From: an uncultured bacterium
GTDB lineage: Bacteria > Bacillota_I > Bacilli_A > RF39 > UBA660
Assembly: GCA_949293285.1 (NCBI GenBank)
Contig: CASFCU010000059.1
Location: forward strand, 1-46,785
Direction: 5' to 3'
DNA length: 46,785 nt
How positions within the stretch are numbered: the first letter of the stretch is position 1; every line of letters starts with the position of its first letter. Below the pieces are notes generated by a model, which saw only the letters and a list, made by a program, of their open reading frames with translations, did not search any database and had not been told where the DNA came from. The position numbers and the translations under genes are program-made. Positions 1-31,486 of the stretch are shown one piece after another.

Positions 1-21
1 AGTATTATATACTTTATTCAT
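1..21 (-). CDS. 5' end of a leftward gene cut by the window edge (MNKVYNT...)
   Basis: Minus strand reads AAAGGAG (plus 28-34), a 6-nt spacer, then ATG (plus 21-19) followed by AAT AAA GTA TAT AAT ACT. Only 7 codons are visible, so there is no product call. Confidence 0.3.
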
Positions 22-284
22 ATGGGACTCCTTTTATTATTGGGATTTTAATTTTATTATATCAGAAGGGTCCCATATAAGCTTAATAGAAACGAAAATA
101 AATTAGAGGAAGAAACACTCTAATTTTCTTTTGATAAAAAACTGTCCGTAACTAAGATTTGTAGTAGAGTAAAGCATAAGTGTGAGTGTCCGTCCTATTG
201 CTTTGCTTATCCCACGAAAAACCTTTTTCGTGGGGAAATTATAAATTATGAGTTAATTGTATAAATTTATATAAATTAACTTAG

Positions 285-420
285 GATTATACTGATAAAC
301 TGATTTGGCTTTTGTCCCCTAACAACTTCAATGGCACTAATGCTAACGTGTTCAAGGTGAATCCTGCCTCTAGTTTGAACAACAACAACGTCGATAACGT
401 TGATGGGGCCCGCGCCCGGC
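285..420 (+). repeat. DGR template repeat (TR) candidate with 3' G/C-only clamp
   Basis: Local GC island in AT-rich DNA. An open frame from 285 reads DYTDKLIWLLSPNNFNGTNANVFKVNPASSLNNNNVDNVDGARAR. 11 of 33 codons between 321 and 419 are AAY (Asn). The TR ends in GGGGCCCGCGCCCGGC (405-420). There is no start codon or RBS, so it is not a gene. The exact 5' boundary is uncertain. Confidence 0.75.
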
Positions 421-442
421 AATTTCCTTTAATTCATTTACG

Positions 443-480
443 GCTATTTTTATAGTAATAATGCTATGGTGAAAAATAGC
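443..480 (+). other. Stem-loop in the TR-avd spacer
   Basis: GCTATTTTT (443-451) pairs with AAAAATAGC (472-480). An inner ATAG/CTAT pairing lies in the loop. Confidence 0.6.
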
Positions 481-539
481 TATTCACTAAAGTGAAACAA
501 GTATAATTCTATGGGATATTCCCAAAAAATCTTGTAGAC

Positions 540-581
540 AAACTGCTTATAGTTAGTAAAGTTTGAAAACTATAGCAGTTT
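540..581 (+). other. Long stem-loop just upstream of the avd RBS
   Basis: AAACTGC-T-TATAGTT (540-554) pairs with AACTATAGCAGTTT (568-581). The stem is about 13 bp with a one-base bulge. Confidence 0.6.
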
Positions 582-604
582 TAGCTACAACTGTGAGGTT
601 TACT

Positions 605-967
605 ATGAATAACAATACAAGTAGTAAAGATTTTAGTTTATATAACAAAGTAGTTGATTTGGATAATTATATTAATCGATATATAGCAAACAACATTTCA
701 TCTGTTCGTAGAGATATTAGAATACACCTTTTAGATGAGATATATAATCTTTCAAAAAATATTTTTTATGCATTATATAATAAGGGAAATATTAGAATGA
801 AATATTTAATAGAATTACAAGTTAATATTTCTTTAATTGATATGTTTCTTTTGAAACTAAGAAATCTTAACACAGTTAAAAAAAGTTACATAGACGTTTC
901 TATATCTAAACTTAGTGATATTAAAAATATTATTTACGGTTGGAAATTTAATGAAGAAAAGAAATAG
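605..967 (+). CDS. avd: Avd-like accessory variability determinant (four-helix-bundle protein)
   Basis: 120 aa, basic and helical, with the pattern of four-helix-bundle / 23S-IVS-type proteins (ends ...IKNIIYGW). GAGG lies 7 nt upstream of ATG 605. It overlaps the RT start by 17 nt. The TTG at 563 in the ORF track lies inside the hairpin and is unlikely to be the start. Confidence 0.8.
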   Translation: MNNNTSSKDFSLYNKVVDLDNYINRYIANNISSVRRDIRIHLLDEIYNLSKNIFYALYNKGNIRMKYLIELQVNISLIDMFLLKLRNLNTVKKSYIDVSISKLSDIKNIIYGWKFNEEKK

Positions 968-2438
968 TATTACCTATGATACAGAACTCTCTATTGATAA
1001 TATTTATAACATGTGGAATGTCATTCGTAAGACTTGTAAAAACAAAAAAGCTCTTTTGAATTTTTCTATGAATTTATCTACAAATATTGACTATATCTAC
1101 AAAGCATTAAAAAATAGAACATATAGTCCTTATAAATATAACACTTTTATGATTTTTGAACCTAAAGCAAGACTAGTTATGAGTAGTTCTATTCGTGACA
1201 AAATAGTTAATCATTTTGTAGCTAATTATTATCTTATTCCCTACTTAGAAAAAAGTCTCATTGATGTGAATGTGGCTACTAGGAAAAAAAGGGGAAGCTC
1301 TTATGCTATGTACCTTATTAAAAAGTATTTTAATAAAATATTAATTAATAATGCTAAAAAAGAAATATATTGTTTAAAGATAGATATTAGTAAATATTTT
1401 TATTCTATAAATCACAATATACTAATAAAAAAAATAGAGAAAAAAATTTATGATCAAGATATTATTCATTTAGTTAAGTTGATAATTAGTGAGACTAATA
1501 AAGATTATATTAATGATTCTATTTATCAATATAATAAAATTTATAATACTGATATTCCTTTATATGGGAATGATAGAGGATTGAGTATTGGTGCTATGAC
1601 TAGCCAATTTTTAGCCATTTTTTATCTTAATGATTTGAATCATTTTATTAAAGAAAAATTAAAATGTAAATATTACGTTAGATATATGGATGATCTAATA
1701 ATTTTAGACTGTGATAAAGAAAAACTTAAAGAAATTTGGAAATTGATTGTATTCGAAATTGAGAAGTTAGAACTTTCAGCAAATAAAAAAAGTAATATTT
1801 ATAACTGTAGTAAAGGTTTTACTTTTTTAGGTTATAAATATAAGATAACTAACAATAAGTTAAAAATTAGCTTTAATCGTAAAACTTATTTTAAAATTAA
1901 AAAGAAATTAAAGACTCTATATAGATATGATAGGATTAAGTTTAATAAATCACTTGATAGCTATTGGGGATACTTTAGTAATTGTTATACTTTAAAGAAA
2001 GGAAGTTTTAAAATGAAATTAATAGATATCTATAAGTTGTATAAAGAAAACCATTTCGATACTTTAATCATTGTTAAAGATGGAATTTTTTATAAAAGCT
2101 TTTATAATGATGCTAAGATATTGTGGTATTTATTTAACTATAAATATATTAATGATTCTGTCTCTTTTGGTAATGTTCCTTATGATAAAGTAGTTTCTAA
2201 ATTGAAAAGAAATGATATTAATTTTATAATTTTTGATAAAGAAAAAGAGCTTTTATCCTTAATAAAAGAAGATAATACCTATCATTCTTACTCTGATTTG
2301 GCAAATAAATCTTATGATAAAAGATTAAAAATTGATTTACTTTTGAAAAAGTTAGAATTTATTTTAGATAATAATTATAGTTCTTATCAAAAGATAGATT
2401 CTTATCTTGAAAATTTTAATTCATCTTCTGATAATTAA
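951..2438 (+). CDS. DGR-type reverse transcriptase with C-terminal MutS domain-I-like extension
   Basis: RT motifs present: FEPKARLVMSSSIRDKIVNH, ATRKKRGS, KIDISKYFYSINH, GLSIGAMTSQ ([I/L]GxxxSQ, the DGR hallmark) and YVRYMDDLIIL (YMDD). The C-terminal ~140 aa (nt 2013 onward) align to the MutS N-terminal domain. The start is taken at ATG 951 (MKKRNSITYD). Confidence 0.9.
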   Translation: MKKRNSITYDTELSIDNIYNMWNVIRKTCKNKKALLNFSMNLSTNIDYIYKALKNRTYSPYKYNTFMIFEPKARLVMSSSIRDKIVNHFVANYYLIPYLEKSLIDVNVATRKKRGSSYAMYLIKKYFNKILINNAKKEIYCLKIDISKYFYSINHNILIKKIEKKIYDQDIIHLVKLIISETNKDYINDSIYQYNKIYNTDIPLYGNDRGLSIGAMTSQFLAIFYLNDLNHFIKEKLKCKYYVRYMDDLIILDCDKEKLKEIWKLIVFEIEKLELSANKKSNIYNCSKGFTFLGYKYKITNNKLKISFNRKTYFKIKKKLKTLYRYDRIKFNKSLDSYWGYFSNCYTLKKGSFKMKLIDIYKLYKENHFDTLIIVKDGIFYKSFYNDAKILWYLFNYKYINDSVSFGNVPYDKVVSKLKRNDINFIIFDKEKELLSLIKEDNTYHSYSDLANKSYDKRLKIDLLLKKLEFILDNNYSSYQKIDSYLENFNSSSDN

Positions 2439-2542
2439 GTAAAGACAAGCAGTTGAAAAGCAAATGAAAGGTAAGATAACCCAAAGAGATATGTTTGACA
2501 AAATTATTCATATATATTAGAATTTATTATAGGAGGAATGAT

Positions 2543-3061
2543 ATGGATAATAGAGATAAAAAGAATATAATGATTGTTGCCCTTTTAGTAGCAGTAGTAT
2601 TTATGTCAGTAGGATATGCCTTATTGTCAGCTCAATTAGATGTAAAAGGAACGACCACTATAGTAGACCCTGTGTGGGATGTCAAAATTACCTCTATAAG
2701 CAGTACAGAAACAGAGGGAAATGCAACTAGTATCGATGCAATGGTTGAAAACAGATTCTCTGCAAAATTCAATGCCCAATTTCAAGCACCTGGAGATAAA
2801 ATAACATATGTAGTGAATGTTAAAAATGAGGGAACGATAAGTGCAGTATTGAATTCAATTACAATTACTCCTGATGATTATGCAGATGGATTTATAGTCT
2901 ATACAATAGATGGCTTAGAAGTAGGGGATACATTGAATGTCGGAGAAACTAAAGTATTTACAATTTCTGCAACCTACAATGAAGAGATAGAAGGAACACC
3001 ACAAGAGGAAGATTTGACAAAAGAGATCACTTTAATACTAGATTATGTACAAAATAAGTAA
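2543..3061 (+). CDS. Small secreted beta-rich protein with N-terminal signal-anchor; candidate SipW substrate (TasA/camelysin-like by context)
   Basis: AGGAGG at 2531-2536 precedes ATG 2543. The N-terminus is basic, followed by a hydrophobic segment and then ...GYALLSAQLDVKGT. The gene sits directly upstream of a SipW-type peptidase gene. The family call rests mainly on context. Confidence 0.5.
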   Translation: MDNRDKKNIMIVALLVAVVFMSVGYALLSAQLDVKGTTTIVDPVWDVKITSISSTETEGNATSIDAMVENRFSAKFNAQFQAPGDKITYVVNVKNEGTISAVLNSITITPDDYADGFIVYTIDGLEVGDTLNVGETKVFTISATYNEEIEGTPQEEDLTKEITLILDYVQNK

Positions 3062-3127
3062 TTTTTTATAAGTTACTTTTTTTTTGCTCATTTATGTTTT
3101 ATAATAATTTCATAATAGGAGCTTGTT

Positions 3128-4273
3128 ATGAAAAACAGAAAAATTATTTTAATGTACATTATTTTATTAGTATATATCATAGCTAATAATTATGTAATCA
3201 TATCACCATTTGCAAAATATTATAATTTATTAATAAATCCATTATTATTACTAATAGTAGCAATGATTTTCTACGTATTATTTCCAAAAAAACAAAGAAA
3301 AATTAGATATAAATATGAACAAATTCAAAATATTATTATCATCTTATTCATCTATTCTATGATATATTTCTTATCAGGATTAATATTTGGGTATGAATAT
3401 TCTATATATGGAAGGGACCTATCTACGATAATTCAAAATATTTATTCCTTCATAACGGTTATTATTTTAAGTGAATATATAAGGAACAAATTAGTAGTAA
3501 ATACTGAAGATAATGCTATAAATAATGTATTAATATCCCTTTTTTTATTATCTATGAGTACAAATTTTACTTATTTAGTCAACCATCTTTATCCCTTTTC
3601 TACAGGGTTTAAATATATGACCAGTAATTTTATACCCGATTTAGTTACAACCTTTATACTCACTTACCTATCCAGAACAACAGGATTAAAAGCTACAATA
3701 ATTTATAGAAGTTGGCTTAGATTAATACCAATAATATTACCAATACTACCTAAATTACCTTGGATACTAACATCTATAATAGGAATTGTTCTCCCCATGG
3801 TAATATACTTTAATATAAGTTATCTAACTATGATGTACGATAGAAAAAATCGAAGATTTTCATTAAATAAAAATGATAAGGGAACAACAATTCTAACAAT
3901 CATAGTAATCATGTTCGTTCTCTTTATCCTAAAAATATTTAAATATTTTCCAATTGCAGTATTATCTAACAGCATGGAAACCACTTTTTCAAAAGGAGAT
4001 GCTGTAATTATCGAAAAGATTGATAAAAATTCTTTGGGACAATTAAAAGTATATGATATAATTTATTATAAGAAAAATAATAAACTTATCATACATCGGA
4101 TAGAACAAATCGAAGAAATAGACAATAAGAGAGTATTTATTACAAAAGGGGACAACAATCCTACAAAAGACCCTTGGTATGTATATGAAGAAGATATCAT
4201 TGGCATTATGAAATTCAAAATACCATGTCTGGGATATCCAGCAGTGTGGTTTAATGAAGCAATAAATAATTAG
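3128..4273 (+). CDS. sipW: Polytopic membrane domain fused to SipW/Sec11-type signal peptidase I
   Basis: The C-terminal ~110 aa read AVLSNSMETTFSKGDAVIIEK...IIHRI...ITKGDNNPTKDPW, matching S26B-type Ser/His/Asp boxes. The N-terminal ~270 aa are multi-TM. The RBS is TAGGAG. Confidence 0.8.
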   Translation: MKNRKIILMYIILLVYIIANNYVIISPFAKYYNLLINPLLLLIVAMIFYVLFPKKQRKIRYKYEQIQNIIIILFIYSMIYFLSGLIFGYEYSIYGRDLSTIIQNIYSFITVIILSEYIRNKLVVNTEDNAINNVLISLFLLSMSTNFTYLVNHLYPFSTGFKYMTSNFIPDLVTTFILTYLSRTTGLKATIIYRSWLRLIPIILPILPKLPWILTSIIGIVLPMVIYFNISYLTMMYDRKNRRFSLNKNDKGTTILTIIVIMFVLFILKIFKYFPIAVLSNSMETTFSKGDAVIIEKIDKNSLGQLKVYDIIYYKKNNKLIIHRIEQIEEIDNKRVFITKGDNNPTKDPWYVYEEDIIGIMKFKIPCLGYPAVWFNEAINN

Positions 4274-4281
4274 GAGGTTGC

Positions 4282-5346
4282 ATGAAAAATAAAGAAAAAA
4301 ATATATTAAAAAGAACAATTCTAAGAAGTATATTATTAGTTTTATCTATTTTCTCTTTAGTAATAGGAATTTTAATAACAGTAGAAGGACTAACAAATAA
4401 CAAAGAAAAAAAAGAAAACATTGTAAATTATGAAACAGGTGGTAAGATTGAATATAATGTTACCTTAAAAGACAATGATTTCTATGACCTGGAAGATATC
4501 AATACGAAAAATATAATAAGCAAATATTTAAATACATTAGATATAAACTTTAAATACGAGTTTTCTTCATCAAAAGCTTTACATTCCAATGCCACGTATT
4601 CTTTAAAAATGTATTTAATAAATAGTTATACACAAAATAACAACGAAGAAGAATTATGGAGAAAAGAATATGAATTATTACCAGAAACAAAAATTACAGA
4701 AAATAAAGCGGTAGTATACTTTGAAAAACAAATTAGTATTAATTATGACGAATATAATGAAATAGCTAGAAAATTTAGAAGTGAATCTGGAATATTAACA
4801 AATTCTTATTTACAACTGGAATTTTCAATAAACAATGAATTAATGGAAGAAACAAAAAATATTAGTTTCGGTGACAATCATGTTTTAGTAGTAAAAATTC
4901 CATTACTAGAAAATATAACTTCTATAGAAAAATTAGGAGAATTTAATGAAAAAGAAAACTTATATAATATTGAAAAAATAGATACCAATTATCTTCAATT
5001 ATCGATTGGCATTTTACTATTAATTGTATCTATTGCCTTTATGATAACTGCTGCAAGAATGTTTATAAATATAAATGAAGTCTCTAAATATATTACGGAA
5101 CAAGGAAGAATATTAAAAAGATATGGAGATGTAATTGCAGAAACCACCACAAAGCCAGATTTAAATAATTTAGATGTAATGGAAATAACAAATTTTATAG
5201 ATTTAATAAATATTGAAGATGAGCTTAGAATTCCAATATTATTCTATGAAAATATCAAAGGAAAAGAGTCTTGGTTTATCATTATTCATAATACGGAGGC
5301 CTATAGATATATTTTAAAAGCAAAAACGAAATCAAAGAAGACCTAA
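4282..5346 (+). CDS. Two-TM membrane protein of unknown function (N-terminal TM, ~220-aa outside domain, second TM, ~100-aa C-terminal domain)
   Basis: The RBS AGGAGG lies 5 nt upstream. The gene is 8 nt after the sipW-like stop, so probably in the same operon. I recognise no catalytic motif. Confidence 0.6.
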   Translation: MKNKEKNILKRTILRSILLVLSIFSLVIGILITVEGLTNNKEKKENIVNYETGGKIEYNVTLKDNDFYDLEDINTKNIISKYLNTLDINFKYEFSSSKALHSNATYSLKMYLINSYTQNNNEEELWRKEYELLPETKITENKAVVYFEKQISINYDEYNEIARKFRSESGILTNSYLQLEFSINNELMEETKNISFGDNHVLVVKIPLLENITSIEKLGEFNEKENLYNIEKIDTNYLQLSIGILLLIVSIAFMITAARMFININEVSKYITEQGRILKRYGDVIAETTTKPDLNNLDVMEITNFIDLINIEDELRIPILFYENIKGKESWFIIIHNTEAYRYILKAKTKSKKT

Positions 5347-29211: not shown

Positions 29212-31266
29212 TTATTTTTGACTTATATTACTATAACCTAGAATATGTTTTTGAACATTCAACAAATCGATAGCAGAAACATTACCATCTCGATTAGTAT
29301 CAGCCGCTCTTGCATAAGATCCAAGTAAAGTAGTATAACCTAAAATATGCTTTTGAACATTCAACAAATCGATAGCAGAAACATTACCATCTCCGTTATT
29401 ATCTCCATATATAACAACTTCTAACGTTTTTGACTCACTATTCGTAGAAATAATTATTTTATCACCGGTAACAATAGTTCCTTCATTTTTATTTCTACCT
29501 TGTCTATCCTGAACATTAACACTAACAGTTTCATAATTTTTTATCAATTTTTCTATCAAACCATCTACATTAGTAGAAAAGGTAACATTCCATAAATAAT
29601 AATCATCATAACTATATCCACTAGCACTCAAAACATCAGCAATTTTCACGGTTACTTCATCAGAATCATCCTTTTTTTCTTCTCTTTTTACAGTTAAATT
29701 ATAAGTCTTAACTGCTCCATTTTGAGCTGTGACTACAATAGAGAAAGAATTGCTATCACCAGTAAGAATTTTATCACCAGTACCCACTATTTTAGCTTTG
29801 CTATTAACAGCAAGTGCAGATATATTAATTTCTTCAGAATATGGAACGGTAACCGTATAATTAACAGTACCCCCACTAAAATTAGTAACAGAAATTCCAT
29901 TTACCTTCAACTCTTTAAGCCAATTATTAGGATTTCCCAAATTTGGTAGGGTAGTCTTTTCCGGCATCCCATCAAATATTGGAATAGAAAAAGAAAATGC
30001 TTCATCAATAATCCCCATACTATTATAAGAGTTATAAGTGGTAACACTAGGAGATACAAGTCCTATGATATTAGTAGTATACTGATGCCACATCCCTTTT
30101 GTAGCAGTAGGAGATAAATTAAATTTTTGAAAATAGGAAGTATATTGTCCACATTGTACATAGTTTACGGTAATCTTATAAGCTCCTTCGACAATTGCTT
30201 TTTGTTGAGTATTCCACTGATAAAGTTTGGCAGTCTGAAGAGATTTTAACTTAGGATCCTTACTAGATGATGCACCAATATTAAAAAAATTATAATACCC
30301 AGTATAATCTACTCCGTCCGATAAAACTCCAGCTTTTCCATTCGTAACAATATTAGTATCACTAAGTCCAACCTCTTGACGAGATAAGGCAGCTAAATAC
30401 ATAGGAGAAACATTATACTTTTCGGAAGCTTCCATAAAATAAGAAGTATATTGTCTCATAAAATCCGAAGAAAGAATCTTATTTACAGTATCTGCATTTT
30501 GATAATCGGAATTGTAAAGCAAATCTTCAAACATAAATATATAACTTTCGGTAAGAAAATTTCTAGGATCCATATAATAAGCAATTGTCTGACTATTAGC
30601 TTGATACCAATAAAGTCCATCATGAGCAAAAAACTTATCTAACTCATAATCATAATTTCCGGCTTCCACAGATAAATATCCTTCTAAACCTTGCTCTTTG
30701 GCACTAGCATTGACATTATACAAACTTGTACCAGAAGAATTTTGCTCACTAAGAGCTTCACTCCAAGTATATTTAGATTTAACCCCTTTAAATATCCAAG
30801 TTGGGTGAATTTTATGTAAAGCCCTTAATTTCACTTTATAACTTTCTGGAAATCCTTGACTATCCAAATATGCCTCAAACTCCTCATCGGTCATATTGGC
30901 CATTTCCGAATTAGAAACATCCGTAGTAGGTGGAACAACGTCATCCACTTCCACTGTTTCAAGATCTTCTATATAAGTGGAACATCCGTATCCTCTATAA
31001 GAAACCCCATTTTCTTCATATATAATTTCTGCCCACGGATCATCACATCCTTCCCCATCACTATAAGAAAGGATAGTAACTCTAGCATTGTGTGGGACAC
31101 CAGTAATTCTATCATAAGCTGTACTAGGACCACTTCTAAGTTTAATTCCTATAGTAGAGGAAATTCTTCCAGTAGTTTTTTCTAATGCTTGAACTGAAAA
31201 TGTAACAAGAAAAAAAGAACATAACATCAAAAAAACTACAGGGATTATATTTCTTCTTTTTTTCAT
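29212..31266 (-). CDS. Secreted SH3b + GH73-type N-acetylglucosaminidase + cadherin-like domain + type-I dockerin protein
   Basis: SH3b (IGIKLRSGPSTAYDRI). Glucosaminidase core (YLAALSRQEVG...YNFFNIGA). Then WLKELKVNGISV...AQNGAVKTYNLTVKR. The C-terminus has duplicated DxNxDGxVSAIDLLNVQKHILGY calcium-binding repeats. The start is set at MKKRRNI after GGAGGTG. Confidence 0.8.
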   Translation of the reverse strand: MKKRRNIIPVVFLMLCSFFLVTFSVQALEKTTGRISSTIGIKLRSGPSTAYDRITGVPHNARVTILSYSDGEGCDDPWAEIIYEENGVSYRGYGCSTYIEDLETVEVDDVVPPTTDVSNSEMANMTDEEFEAYLDSQGFPESYKVKLRALHKIHPTWIFKGVKSKYTWSEALSEQNSSGTSLYNVNASAKEQGLEGYLSVEAGNYDYELDKFFAHDGLYWYQANSQTIAYYMDPRNFLTESYIFMFEDLLYNSDYQNADTVNKILSSDFMRQYTSYFMEASEKYNVSPMYLAALSRQEVGLSDTNIVTNGKAGVLSDGVDYTGYYNFFNIGASSSKDPKLKSLQTAKLYQWNTQQKAIVEGAYKITVNYVQCGQYTSYFQKFNLSPTATKGMWHQYTTNIIGLVSPSVTTYNSYNSMGIIDEAFSFSIPIFDGMPEKTTLPNLGNPNNWLKELKVNGISVTNFSGGTVNYTVTVPYSEEINISALAVNSKAKIVGTGDKILTGDSNSFSIVVTAQNGAVKTYNLTVKREEKKDDSDEVTVKIADVLSASGYSYDDYYLWNVTFSTNVDGLIEKLIKNYETVSVNVQDRQGRNKNEGTIVTGDKIIISTNSESKTLEVVIYGDNNGDGNVSAIDLLNVQKHILGYTTLLGSYARAADTNRDGNVSAIDLLNVQKHILGYSNISQK
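29232..29392. repeat. Two near-identical 59-bp direct repeats encoding the two dockerin segments
   Basis: 29232-29290 versus 29334-29392, offset by 102 bp (34 codons). Only 2 mismatches. Confidence 0.9.
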
Positions 31267-31486
31267 AAACACCTCCATTTTCATACTTTAACAAGTATAA
31301 TTATATAATATAAAAAGTAAAGAGTCTACTAATCGTCAATTCTTTCCAGACAAATCGAAATTATTAGACATTTTTTTACAAAAAAAATCACGAAAAAGCA
31401 AGAAAAAGATAAAAAAAGCACTAGAGAAAAACTAGTTCTTAATAAATGAATAAAAATTTGTTAAAATGTAAATGATGGGTGAAATT

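Follow-up and report, generated by a model that had tools for sequence, protein, structure and literature searches.

Why should the reverse transcriptase (RT) of a retroelement that makes mutations on purpose end in a piece of a mismatch-repair protein? The question is raised by a stretch of 46,785 nucleotides (contig CASFCU010000059.1, positions 1 to 46,785; the whole stretch is called the window below), which carries the template repeat (TR)-avd-RT core of a chromosomal diversity-generating retroelement (DGR) of an uncultured gut Bacilli-type Firmicute. An earlier sequence-only reading of the window proposed that this RT is fused to a module resembling domain I of MutS. We found that the C-terminal domain is almost certainly a true homologue of MutS domain I and a member of the Msl family of DGR accessory proteins.

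The RT and its C-terminal extension

The fusion open reading frame (ORF), 915..2438(+), is unbroken and specifies 495 amino acids (aa) from its likely start, ATG 951. The identical 495-aa protein is encoded on three independent metagenome contigs. The parts of the ORF, in window positions, are as follows.

951-2012, plus strand: RT part of the fusion ORF (aa 1-354), fingers-palm to thumb, from the RVT_1 match, the PHROG RT match and the motifs
1998-2015, plus strand: candidate internal translation start, consisting of the Shine-Dalgarno (SD)-like AAAGGAAG (1998-2005), a 7-nt spacer (2006-2012) and an in-frame ATG (2013-2015)
2013-2267, plus strand: MutS domain I-like core (domain aa 1-85), in which a helix and a beta hairpin are followed by a second helix and then by three further strands and another helix, from Pfam, hhalign, AlphaFold2 and Foldseek
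2088-2096, plus strand: codons of F26-Y27-K28, the counterpart of MutS Phe36-Tyr37-Glu38, from the alignments
2280-2426, plus strand: Msl-specific helical hairpin at the C-terminus (domain aa 90-138), outside the MutS match, from AlphaFold2 and Foldseek
2436-2438, plus strand: stop codon of the fusion ORF

The N-terminal part is an RT of the DGR type. It matches Pfam RVT_1 over aa 72-296 (E=7e-16) and the PHROG RT family (E=4e-74), its translation shows the IGxxxSQ and YMDD motifs, and relatives with 50-64% identity are found in loci with pairs of a TR and a variable repeat (VR). The best NCBIfam match of this part was a group II intron RT, and its homologues were present in 121 phage records, including those of Bordetella phage DGR RTs. 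The RT part stops about 15 aa past a SYWGYF motif; the RTs of unfused relatives end 15-23 aa past the same SYxGYF thumb motif. A linker of about 12 aa leads from the end of the thumb to the MutS-like domain. The RT part and the Avd protein are both basic, with isoelectric points (pI) of 9.7 and 9.6, respectively, and the MutS-like domain is near neutral (pI 6.7).

The extension is homologous to MutS domain I

The domain comprises the last 141 aa of the ORF (2013-2435). In the full protein, Pfam MutS_I (PF01624) was matched at aa 359-402 with 21.6 bits, and the C-terminal 141 aa alone scored 23.9 bits (E=5e-5), as compared with a curated (gathering) cut-off of 20.6 bits. Since a single-sequence match barely over the cut-off is open to doubt, the family was assembled around it. 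HMMER was run with the domain profile over the whole of 1.84 billion cluster representatives and yielded 498 relatives at E<=1e-3, 117 of them at E<=1e-10. A deep alignment of 98 sequences was then used, with the window domain placed first. Ninety-seven of the 98 aligned relatives matched MutS_I individually, the best with E=1.2e-12. When the family profile was compared with PDB sequences, the top 18 matches were all MutS or MSH6 (E about 1e-3). In hhalign, the family matched E. coli MutS 1-160 with 91% probability and E=1.1e-6, residues 4-76 of the domain falling on MutS 14-95.

The structure comparison led to the same place. With the 98-sequence alignment, AlphaFold2 gave a model with a mean predicted local distance difference test score (pLDDT) of 97.3 and a predicted template modelling (TM) score of 0.87; a 4-sequence alignment was inadequate (pLDDT 47) and was not used. 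The top 50 Foldseek matches of this model in the PDB were all domain I of MutS, MSH3 or MSH6, with probabilities of 0.99-1.00, 67-105 aligned columns (most 67-82) and root-mean-square deviations (rmsd) of 1.3-5.3 Å (most <2.7). The TM score normalized to the query was about 0.45-0.5, with some 70-80 of the 141 residues covered in most matches. A family for the domain was also sought in NCBIfam and PHROGs; neither has one.

Thus, the fusion claimed by the sequence-only reading is borne out by Pfam, hhalign, the AlphaFold2 model and Foldseek. The two checks that it had named, the PF01624 profile and a structure comparison, both returned MutS_I, the former above the cut-off and the latter as the top folds. 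Its coordinates and sequence statements for 2013-2438 and 1998-2015 were accurate. It had also aligned a second block, SFGNVPYDKV.. against MAGIPYHAV.. of E. coli MutS; the extent of this block stands, but the register is about 3 residues off, as hhalign pairs F52-G53 with I71-P72.

The wedge phenylalanine is kept and the glutamate is not

The hairpin of the core carries G24-x-F26-Y27-K28. Every alignment sets G24-I25-F26-Y27-K28 on G34-D35-F36-Y37-E38 of E. coli MutS, in full agreement with the proposal that the stacking Phe is retained and the Glu replaced by Lys. The Phe-X-Glu motif is therefore incomplete: F26 corresponds to F36, and K28 stands in place of E38. The sequence-only reading was mistaken in calling this Glu a catalytic-site residue. 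Glu38 of MutS contacts the mismatch and authorizes repair; we take its part to be that of coupling the one to the other, with no role in catalysis. Among the Foldseek matches were 1wbd, 1wb9 and 1wbb, the crystal structures of the E38Q, E38T and E38A forms of MutS, which still bind a G.T mismatch.

The same pattern holds across the family. Among 155 family representatives, the F26 position is Phe in 142 of the 148 without a gap. The position equivalent to Glu is occupied by K (48), R (19), Y (12), E (12), I (11), V (10) and N (9), so that Glu is present in only 12 of 148. In the 107 full-length fusions, Phe is found 102 times and Lys 86 times at the F26 and K28 positions, respectively. G24, Y27, D33 and F52 are also conserved at about 90% or above. 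The family has kept the Phe wedge and given up the repair-authorizing Glu, with the Phe almost never varying and the Glu position unconstrained.

No other part of MutS accompanies the domain. Pfam found only RVT_1 and MutS_I in the 495-aa ORF, with MutS_II to MutS_V absent. Because it lacks these domains and ends 141 aa past the domain start, the fusion protein is not a MutS protein but only a relative of MutS domain I. The C-terminal hairpin, with helices at 90-120 and 122-138, was modelled with pLDDT >90, and this segment has a pI of 5.6.

Msl genes are free, adjacent or fused to the RT

The domain profile readily finds free proteins of 130-140 aa, such as P0040 (E=1e-17) and P0125 (E=1.5e-10), which identifies the window domain as an Msl. 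Most of the 498 family representatives are free proteins of 125-145 aa; fusions or fusion fragments make up about 25 of the top 150.

Three arrangements were observed. In the first, msl is the leading gene of msl-avd-(X)-RT operons with overlapping genes (related loci L028, L029, L030 and L033); the Msl proteins of L028 and L029 are 33-37% identical to the window domain and are encoded beside a TR/VR pair. In the second, a separate msl ORF begins 4 nt past the RT (L024 and L025). In the third, as in the window, msl is fused to the C-terminus of the RT. The best 120 matches to the whole 495-aa query were nearly all 487-510 aa long and 50-64% identical to it, with 97-100% of the query covered. 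The fused clade consists of more than 100 clusters at 90% identity from gut metagenomes (sources ENA, Logan, NCBI and JGI). An RT-Msl fusion was found in none of 50,697 deposited phage genomes. Rough neighbour-joining trees, of low weight, suggest that fusion or fission took place in at least two lineages.

In these trees, which had no bootstrap and are given low weight, the Msl of L024/L025 groups with the fused clade, and their RT groups with the clade that has msl upstream (set against L018/L027 and L028/L029), a hint that DGR lineages may have exchanged the module.

Three proteins that looked like close free homologues of the domain, P0003, P0004 and P0005, were rejected. P0004 lies behind a frameshifted RT (L004), and P0003 and P0005 are contig-end fragments (L009 and L010) with the RT frame open upstream. 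The evidence for separate genes therefore rests on L024, L025, L028, L029, L030 and L033.

The RT frame of L004, like that of four sister contigs of one study, has been broken by the loss of a single A from a homopolymer (L004:1685-1740; A6 as opposed to A7 in the window, 1782-1800). The thumb and Msl go on in the -1 frame, and the Msl ORF is intact together with its SD and ATG. A conserved slippery or phase-variable site at the A7 run (1785-1791) was considered and ruled out, as a G interrupts the run in most relatives. Because the A-run is not conserved in the clade, the break in L004 looks less like a programmed switch than like a sequencing error in the homopolymer or an inactivating mutation.

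Decayed or rearranged copies were also encountered. L014:4984-6417 joins a phage-integrase N-terminus to an RT tail and MutS_I, P0025 joins an AMP-binding N-terminus to the same two parts, and L022:700-2223 has several frameshifts. The Msl part remains open in all three.

The DGRs with a separate msl have an extra small gene between avd and RT (L024:4475-4870; L025:4475-4870; L028:6732-7379; L029:6729-7355). Its product has 131-215 aa and a transmembrane-like segment at the N-terminus, and neither Pfam nor PHROGs matches it. The window's DGR lacks this gene, which is possibly a further accessory gene.

A candidate start signal at the domain boundary

The sequence-only reading had placed AAAGGAAG-N7-ATG at 1998-2015, exactly where we find it, and suggested that the module was once, or still can be, translated separately. 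This suggestion is supported by the separate ORFs (past the RT in L024/L025, upstream of avd in L028/L029/L030) and by the conservation of the SD and start in the fused clade.

The RT frame enters the domain in 18 sequences, namely 11 complete fusion ORFs and frameshifted or contig-end copies; 16 of these have a GGAG, GAGG or AGGA core ahead of the domain's first codon. In the 11 complete ORFs the core lies 6-14 nt upstream of the boundary codon. This codon is ATG in most, GTG in L018 and L026, TTG in L013 and AAG only in L023. Ranked by anti-SD pairing energy, the boundary came first among start-like codons in 8 of the 11 fused ORFs.

The peptide encoded across the signal is variable (KKGSFK, KEENFK, ERKYFK and others). 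In the SD window, 19 of its 27 Lys, Glu and Arg codons have G at the third position, as opposed to 340 of 1,222 elsewhere in the same genes of about 21% GC (odds ratio 6.2, p=7e-6); collapsing the lineages leaves 12/18 and 234/879 (p=5e-4). The boundary residue of the 107 fusions is Met in 84, Leu in 10, Val in 7 and Ile in 6, that is, one of these four in all 107. F(-2) and K(-1) are kept as protein in 98 and 86 of the 107, respectively. These counts come from related sequences in which F(-2) and K(-1) are conserved as protein and some of the SD-to-start spacings are long (12-14 nt). The SD-like site and the start codon at the boundary thus appear to be maintained by synonymous codon choice. 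This is moderate evidence, and it suggests that free Msl may also be translated from within the fused gene.

The DGR core of the window and its relatives

Upstream of the fusion ORF, the core of the DGR contains three further elements.

305-425, plus strand: putative TR, AAC-rich, with a GC-rich end block GGGGCCCGCGCCCGGC; aligns with the TRs of L004, L015 and L017
455-600, plus strand: non-coding block that separates TR from avd and is likely the structured 3' portion of the DGR RNA, from conservation in four loci
605-967, plus strand: avd, 120 aa, pI 9.6, overlapping the RT start by 17 nt; matches PHROG phrog_3206 'Avd protein of DGR' (E=1.9e-4)

The avd product is 61% identical to an ORF of L004 that has a Pfam bAvd match. 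Within 455-600, the blocks GCTATGGTGAAA, AAGTGAAACA, TAATTCTATGG, GTAGACAAACT and TAGTTTTAGCTAC are invariant or nearly so in four loci whose proteins are only about 60% identical. By analogy with the spacer region of the Bordetella phage DGR RNA, we assume a scaffold role for 455-600, and the conserved non-coding blocks flanking the TR are probably the structured scaffold of the DGR RNA. A conserved palindromic TATA..TTAACTTAGGATTATAC lies upstream of the TR (255-300). An Rfam search of positions 1-3000 revealed no family for the conserved blocks beside the TR. The only match, the sub-threshold 'Plastid-rpl20' at 205-276 (34 bits as opposed to a gathering score of 53, E=0.02), fell over a terminator-like hairpin, cccacgaaaaacctttttcgtgggg, and was taken as chance.

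No VR was found on either strand of the 46.8-kb window by ordinary repeat finding or by an adenine-tolerant scan, and an exact-pattern scan of JGI metagenome contigs found neither the TR nor a VR. The three contigs with the identical RT (L001, L002 and L003) end no more than about 130 nt from the start of the window, some 300 nt upstream of the TR, and related loci carry the VR where these contigs end. The assembly was probably interrupted by the TR/VR repeat or by heterogeneity of the VR, and the target gene thus probably lies outside the window.

In six related loci (L015, L017, L024, L025, L028 and L029) we found TR/VR pairs 110-121 nt long, whose 9-21 mismatches fall entirely or almost entirely on TR adenines. 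The RT is fused in L015 (21 of 21 mismatches at TR adenines) and L017 (18 of 20), and unfused in the other four. The identity of TR and VR ranges from 82 to 92%. In the four loci with a complete target gene, the VR lies at the C-terminus of a 900-1000-aa protein ending in ..GVRPV; in L015 and L017 the target ORF is truncated by the contig end.

What the domain might do

The explanation toward which we lean, if by a modest margin of belief, is that the Msl domain acts in the RT-Avd complex as a mismatch-holding, repair-incompetent shield of the heteroduplex of cDNA and target. Msl would work as part of the RT-Avd complex, since fusion and tight operon coupling imply physical association. The invariance of the Phe points to contact with an unstacked or mispaired base, and contact with nucleic acid or a mismatch through this residue seems fairly probable from its conservation. 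Mutagenic reverse transcription yields a product with mispaired bases, most probably the cDNA/VR heteroduplex, 8-18% of which is mismatched, and the Phe wedge would hold these bases. With neither the ATPase nor the parts that signal to MutL, Msl could not license repair. Because a protein without ATPase and clamp cannot trigger repair, Msl could serve locally as a decoy or shield, so that host MutS would neither revert the heteroduplex nor abort homeologous annealing. That shielding of the cDNA/VR heteroduplex from mismatch repair is the actual outcome is a more tentative step, somewhat less likely than not.

Mismatch repair blocks recombination between sequences that are 10-20% diverged. The TR/VR identity of 82-92% is in the range where it blocks homeologous annealing. 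Engineered E. coli DGR systems co-express a dominant-negative MutL to inactivate mismatch repair. In Bacteroides, deletion of the host mutS raises DGR mutagenesis 5-10-fold, in an all-or-nothing manner (bioRxiv 10.1101/2024.11.15.621889).

Free Msl made from the internal start would supply more than one copy per RT. The tethered copy would then bring the complex to the mismatched duplex of cDNA and target, free copies would coat the other mispairs, and host mismatch repair and anti-recombination would be switched off locally, only at the site being diversified. We regard the idea that the two products, RT-Msl and free Msl, jointly form a repair-incompetent MutS decoy encoded by the retroelement as speculative and, on present evidence, unlikely.

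Several points weigh against the shield. The domain is near neutral (pI 6.7; family mean 7.7), and an isolated MutS domain I is not known to bind DNA tightly. A single tethered copy per RT is too few for about 20 mismatches. The window has no VR, and the activity of its own element is thus unproven. Some of the related metagenome-assembled genomes (MAGs) are labelled Mycoplasma or Tenericutes, groups that often lack MutS and MutL. The searchable literature contained no experiment on an Msl protein. In E. coli, a DGR assay based on kanamycin repair revealed no effect of mutS, although its substrate was an 18-nt insertion. Finally, the Bordetella phage DGR and many others work without Msl, and mutS was reported not to be required for the Bordetella phage DGR (Wu et al. 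2018, PMC5758913).

The main rival holds that Msl acts in cDNA synthesis or integration and not against repair. Following the thumb, it might hold the mispaired RNA:cDNA primer-template and aid extension past A mispairs; or it might recognize or stabilize the pairing of cDNA with VR, so that the cDNA is installed in the target. We consider such a role in synthesis or target engagement somewhat less likely than the shield. The short linker of about 12 aa between thumb and domain would suit it, as would the origin of RT fusions in at least two lineages (on the rough trees of low weight) and the conservation of the Phe but not of the repair-authorizing Glu. Group II intron RTs carry a DNA-binding D domain directly after the thumb, and a near-neutral domain probably needs the basic RT and Avd (pI 9.7 and 9.6) for its affinity to nucleic acid. 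However, adenine-specific mutagenesis is intrinsic to the RT-Avd of the Bordetella phage system, which has no Msl, and the TR/VR mismatch patterns look alike in Msl-containing loci. Moreover, since Msl is mostly a free-standing protein whose gene comes first in the operon, a fixed place by the thumb is not required.

It is improbable that the fusion has no function of its own, adjacent RT and msl genes having merged by loss of a stop codon while the active species is still free Msl made from the internal ribosome-binding site. The msl ORFs only 4 nt past the RT offer the starting point for such a merger, and it would account for the SD-like site and the ATG, GTG or TTG that synonymous codons apparently maintain at the boundary, as well as for the five contigs, L004 included, in which a broken RT frame is followed by an Msl ORF with intact SD and ATG. 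Against these stand a fused frame that is open in more than 100 clusters diverged to 50-64% identity, the conservation of F(-2) and K(-1) as protein (98 and 86 of 107), the Leu, Val or Ile that replaces Met in 23 of the 107 fusions, and the AAG at the boundary of L023.

That the region is a mere extended RT thumb, or resembles MutS by chance, can be dismissed: the single-sequence Pfam match is indeed just over the threshold (21.6 versus 20.6 bits) and spans only profile positions 5-48 of 113, and a 4-sequence profile gave E-values of only about 1 against PDB sequences, but 97 of 98 family members match MutS_I, hhalign reaches E. coli MutS at E=1e-6, all top 50 folds of the pLDDT-97 model are MutS, MSH3 or MSH6, and unfused RTs are complete without the region, which also exists as an independent gene.

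Neighbourhood of the DGR

Directly downstream of the DGR (2495-5346), the window encodes a secreted or anchored protein of 172-188 aa, a multi-transmembrane S26-type signal peptidase and a DUF5305 protein. SpaA-type pilins and sortases (L004) and an N_methyl pilin (L009) are found downstream of the DGRs of relatives, so that genes for surface structures recur. The rest of the window is ordinary chromosome, with genes for SpoIVA, RNase Y, RNase J, RecG and PFOR; among its large ORFs that were annotated, which were not all the ORFs, no gene of mutS size was seen. At 29224-29403 there are two 78-nt copies with a spacing of 102 nt and 90% identity; they lie in a gene on the minus strand, 29212-31284(-), for a surface protein with SH3, cadherin-like and dockerin domains. 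The related loci come from MAGs of uncultured gut Bacilli, 'Mycoplasma' and 'Tenericutes'.

Comparison with known proteins

The domain shares its fold with domain I of MutS, MSH6 and MSH3 (PF01624) over about 70-80 residues, at an rmsd of mostly 1.3-2.7 Å, together with the motif G-x-F-Y-x-x-F/Y-x-x-D-A, which places the stacking Phe on the hairpin. It differs in having Lys for the Glu of Phe-X-Glu and in the absence of connector, lever, clamp and ATPase, hence of a sliding clamp and of MutL recruitment. Only about the first three quarters of domain I are matched; the Msl-specific helical hairpin follows. The D domain carried by group II intron RTs occupies the same place after the thumb, in an RT lineage that is closely related. 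It shares neither sequence nor fold with Msl, and the analogy is one of position only.

Stand-alone 'MutS domain I' proteins of gut phages (BFVD A0A8S5PL02, A0A8S5L9N2 and A0A8S5PPT8; 74-153 aa) have the same fold (Foldseek E=1e-4 to 4e-4, probability 1.0) and, unlike the window domain, are free-standing rather than fused to an RT.

Msl was defined as a DGR accessory gene in 16 DGRs, always together with avd (Wu et al. 2018, NAR, PMC5758913). The domain described here resembles it in being a small MutS domain I-like module of avd-bearing DGR cassettes, in its homology to the free msl genes of msl-avd-RT operons and in its near-neutral charge (pI 6.7 here, 7.2 in that paper). Msl is also present in a Legionella DGR and in the Bacteroides Bfr, Bth and Bun DGRs (bioRxiv 10.1101/2024.11.15.621889). 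A MutS_I-like C-terminal extension had already been reported on 'three related RTs' (Wu et al. 2018, PMC5758913). The architecture of those proteins is the same as here, with the MutS_I-like domain at the C-terminus of the RT; there were three of them, as opposed to more than 100 clusters at 90% identity in our set. Later papers carry over the Msl annotation without testing its function. The remark of the sequence-only reading that MutS-like modules had been noted in DGR surveys with no demonstrated function thus agrees with the literature searched.

Implications

The existence of the module and of its fusion to an RT was already known. New are the confident assignment of the fold, the family-wide rule that the Phe is invariant where the Glu position is free, the extent of the fused clade in the gut and the conserved signal for an internal start. 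The fusion is evidence of the Rosetta-stone type that Msl works in the RT complex. The fused clade also offers simple constructs for tests: deletion of the domain, F26A, K28E and a silent knock-out of the internal start (AAAGGAAG to AAGGGTTC-type synonymous codons). If the decoy idea is true, DGR- or retron-based genome editing would gain a compact part, about 140 aa long, with which to suppress mismatch repair locally.

Two questions of DGR biology are at stake: how the cDNA replaces the VR, and by what means a heteroduplex mismatched once in every 5-10 bases evades mismatch repair. A module derived from MutS and encoded by the element itself is an obvious candidate for a built-in escape from mismatch repair.

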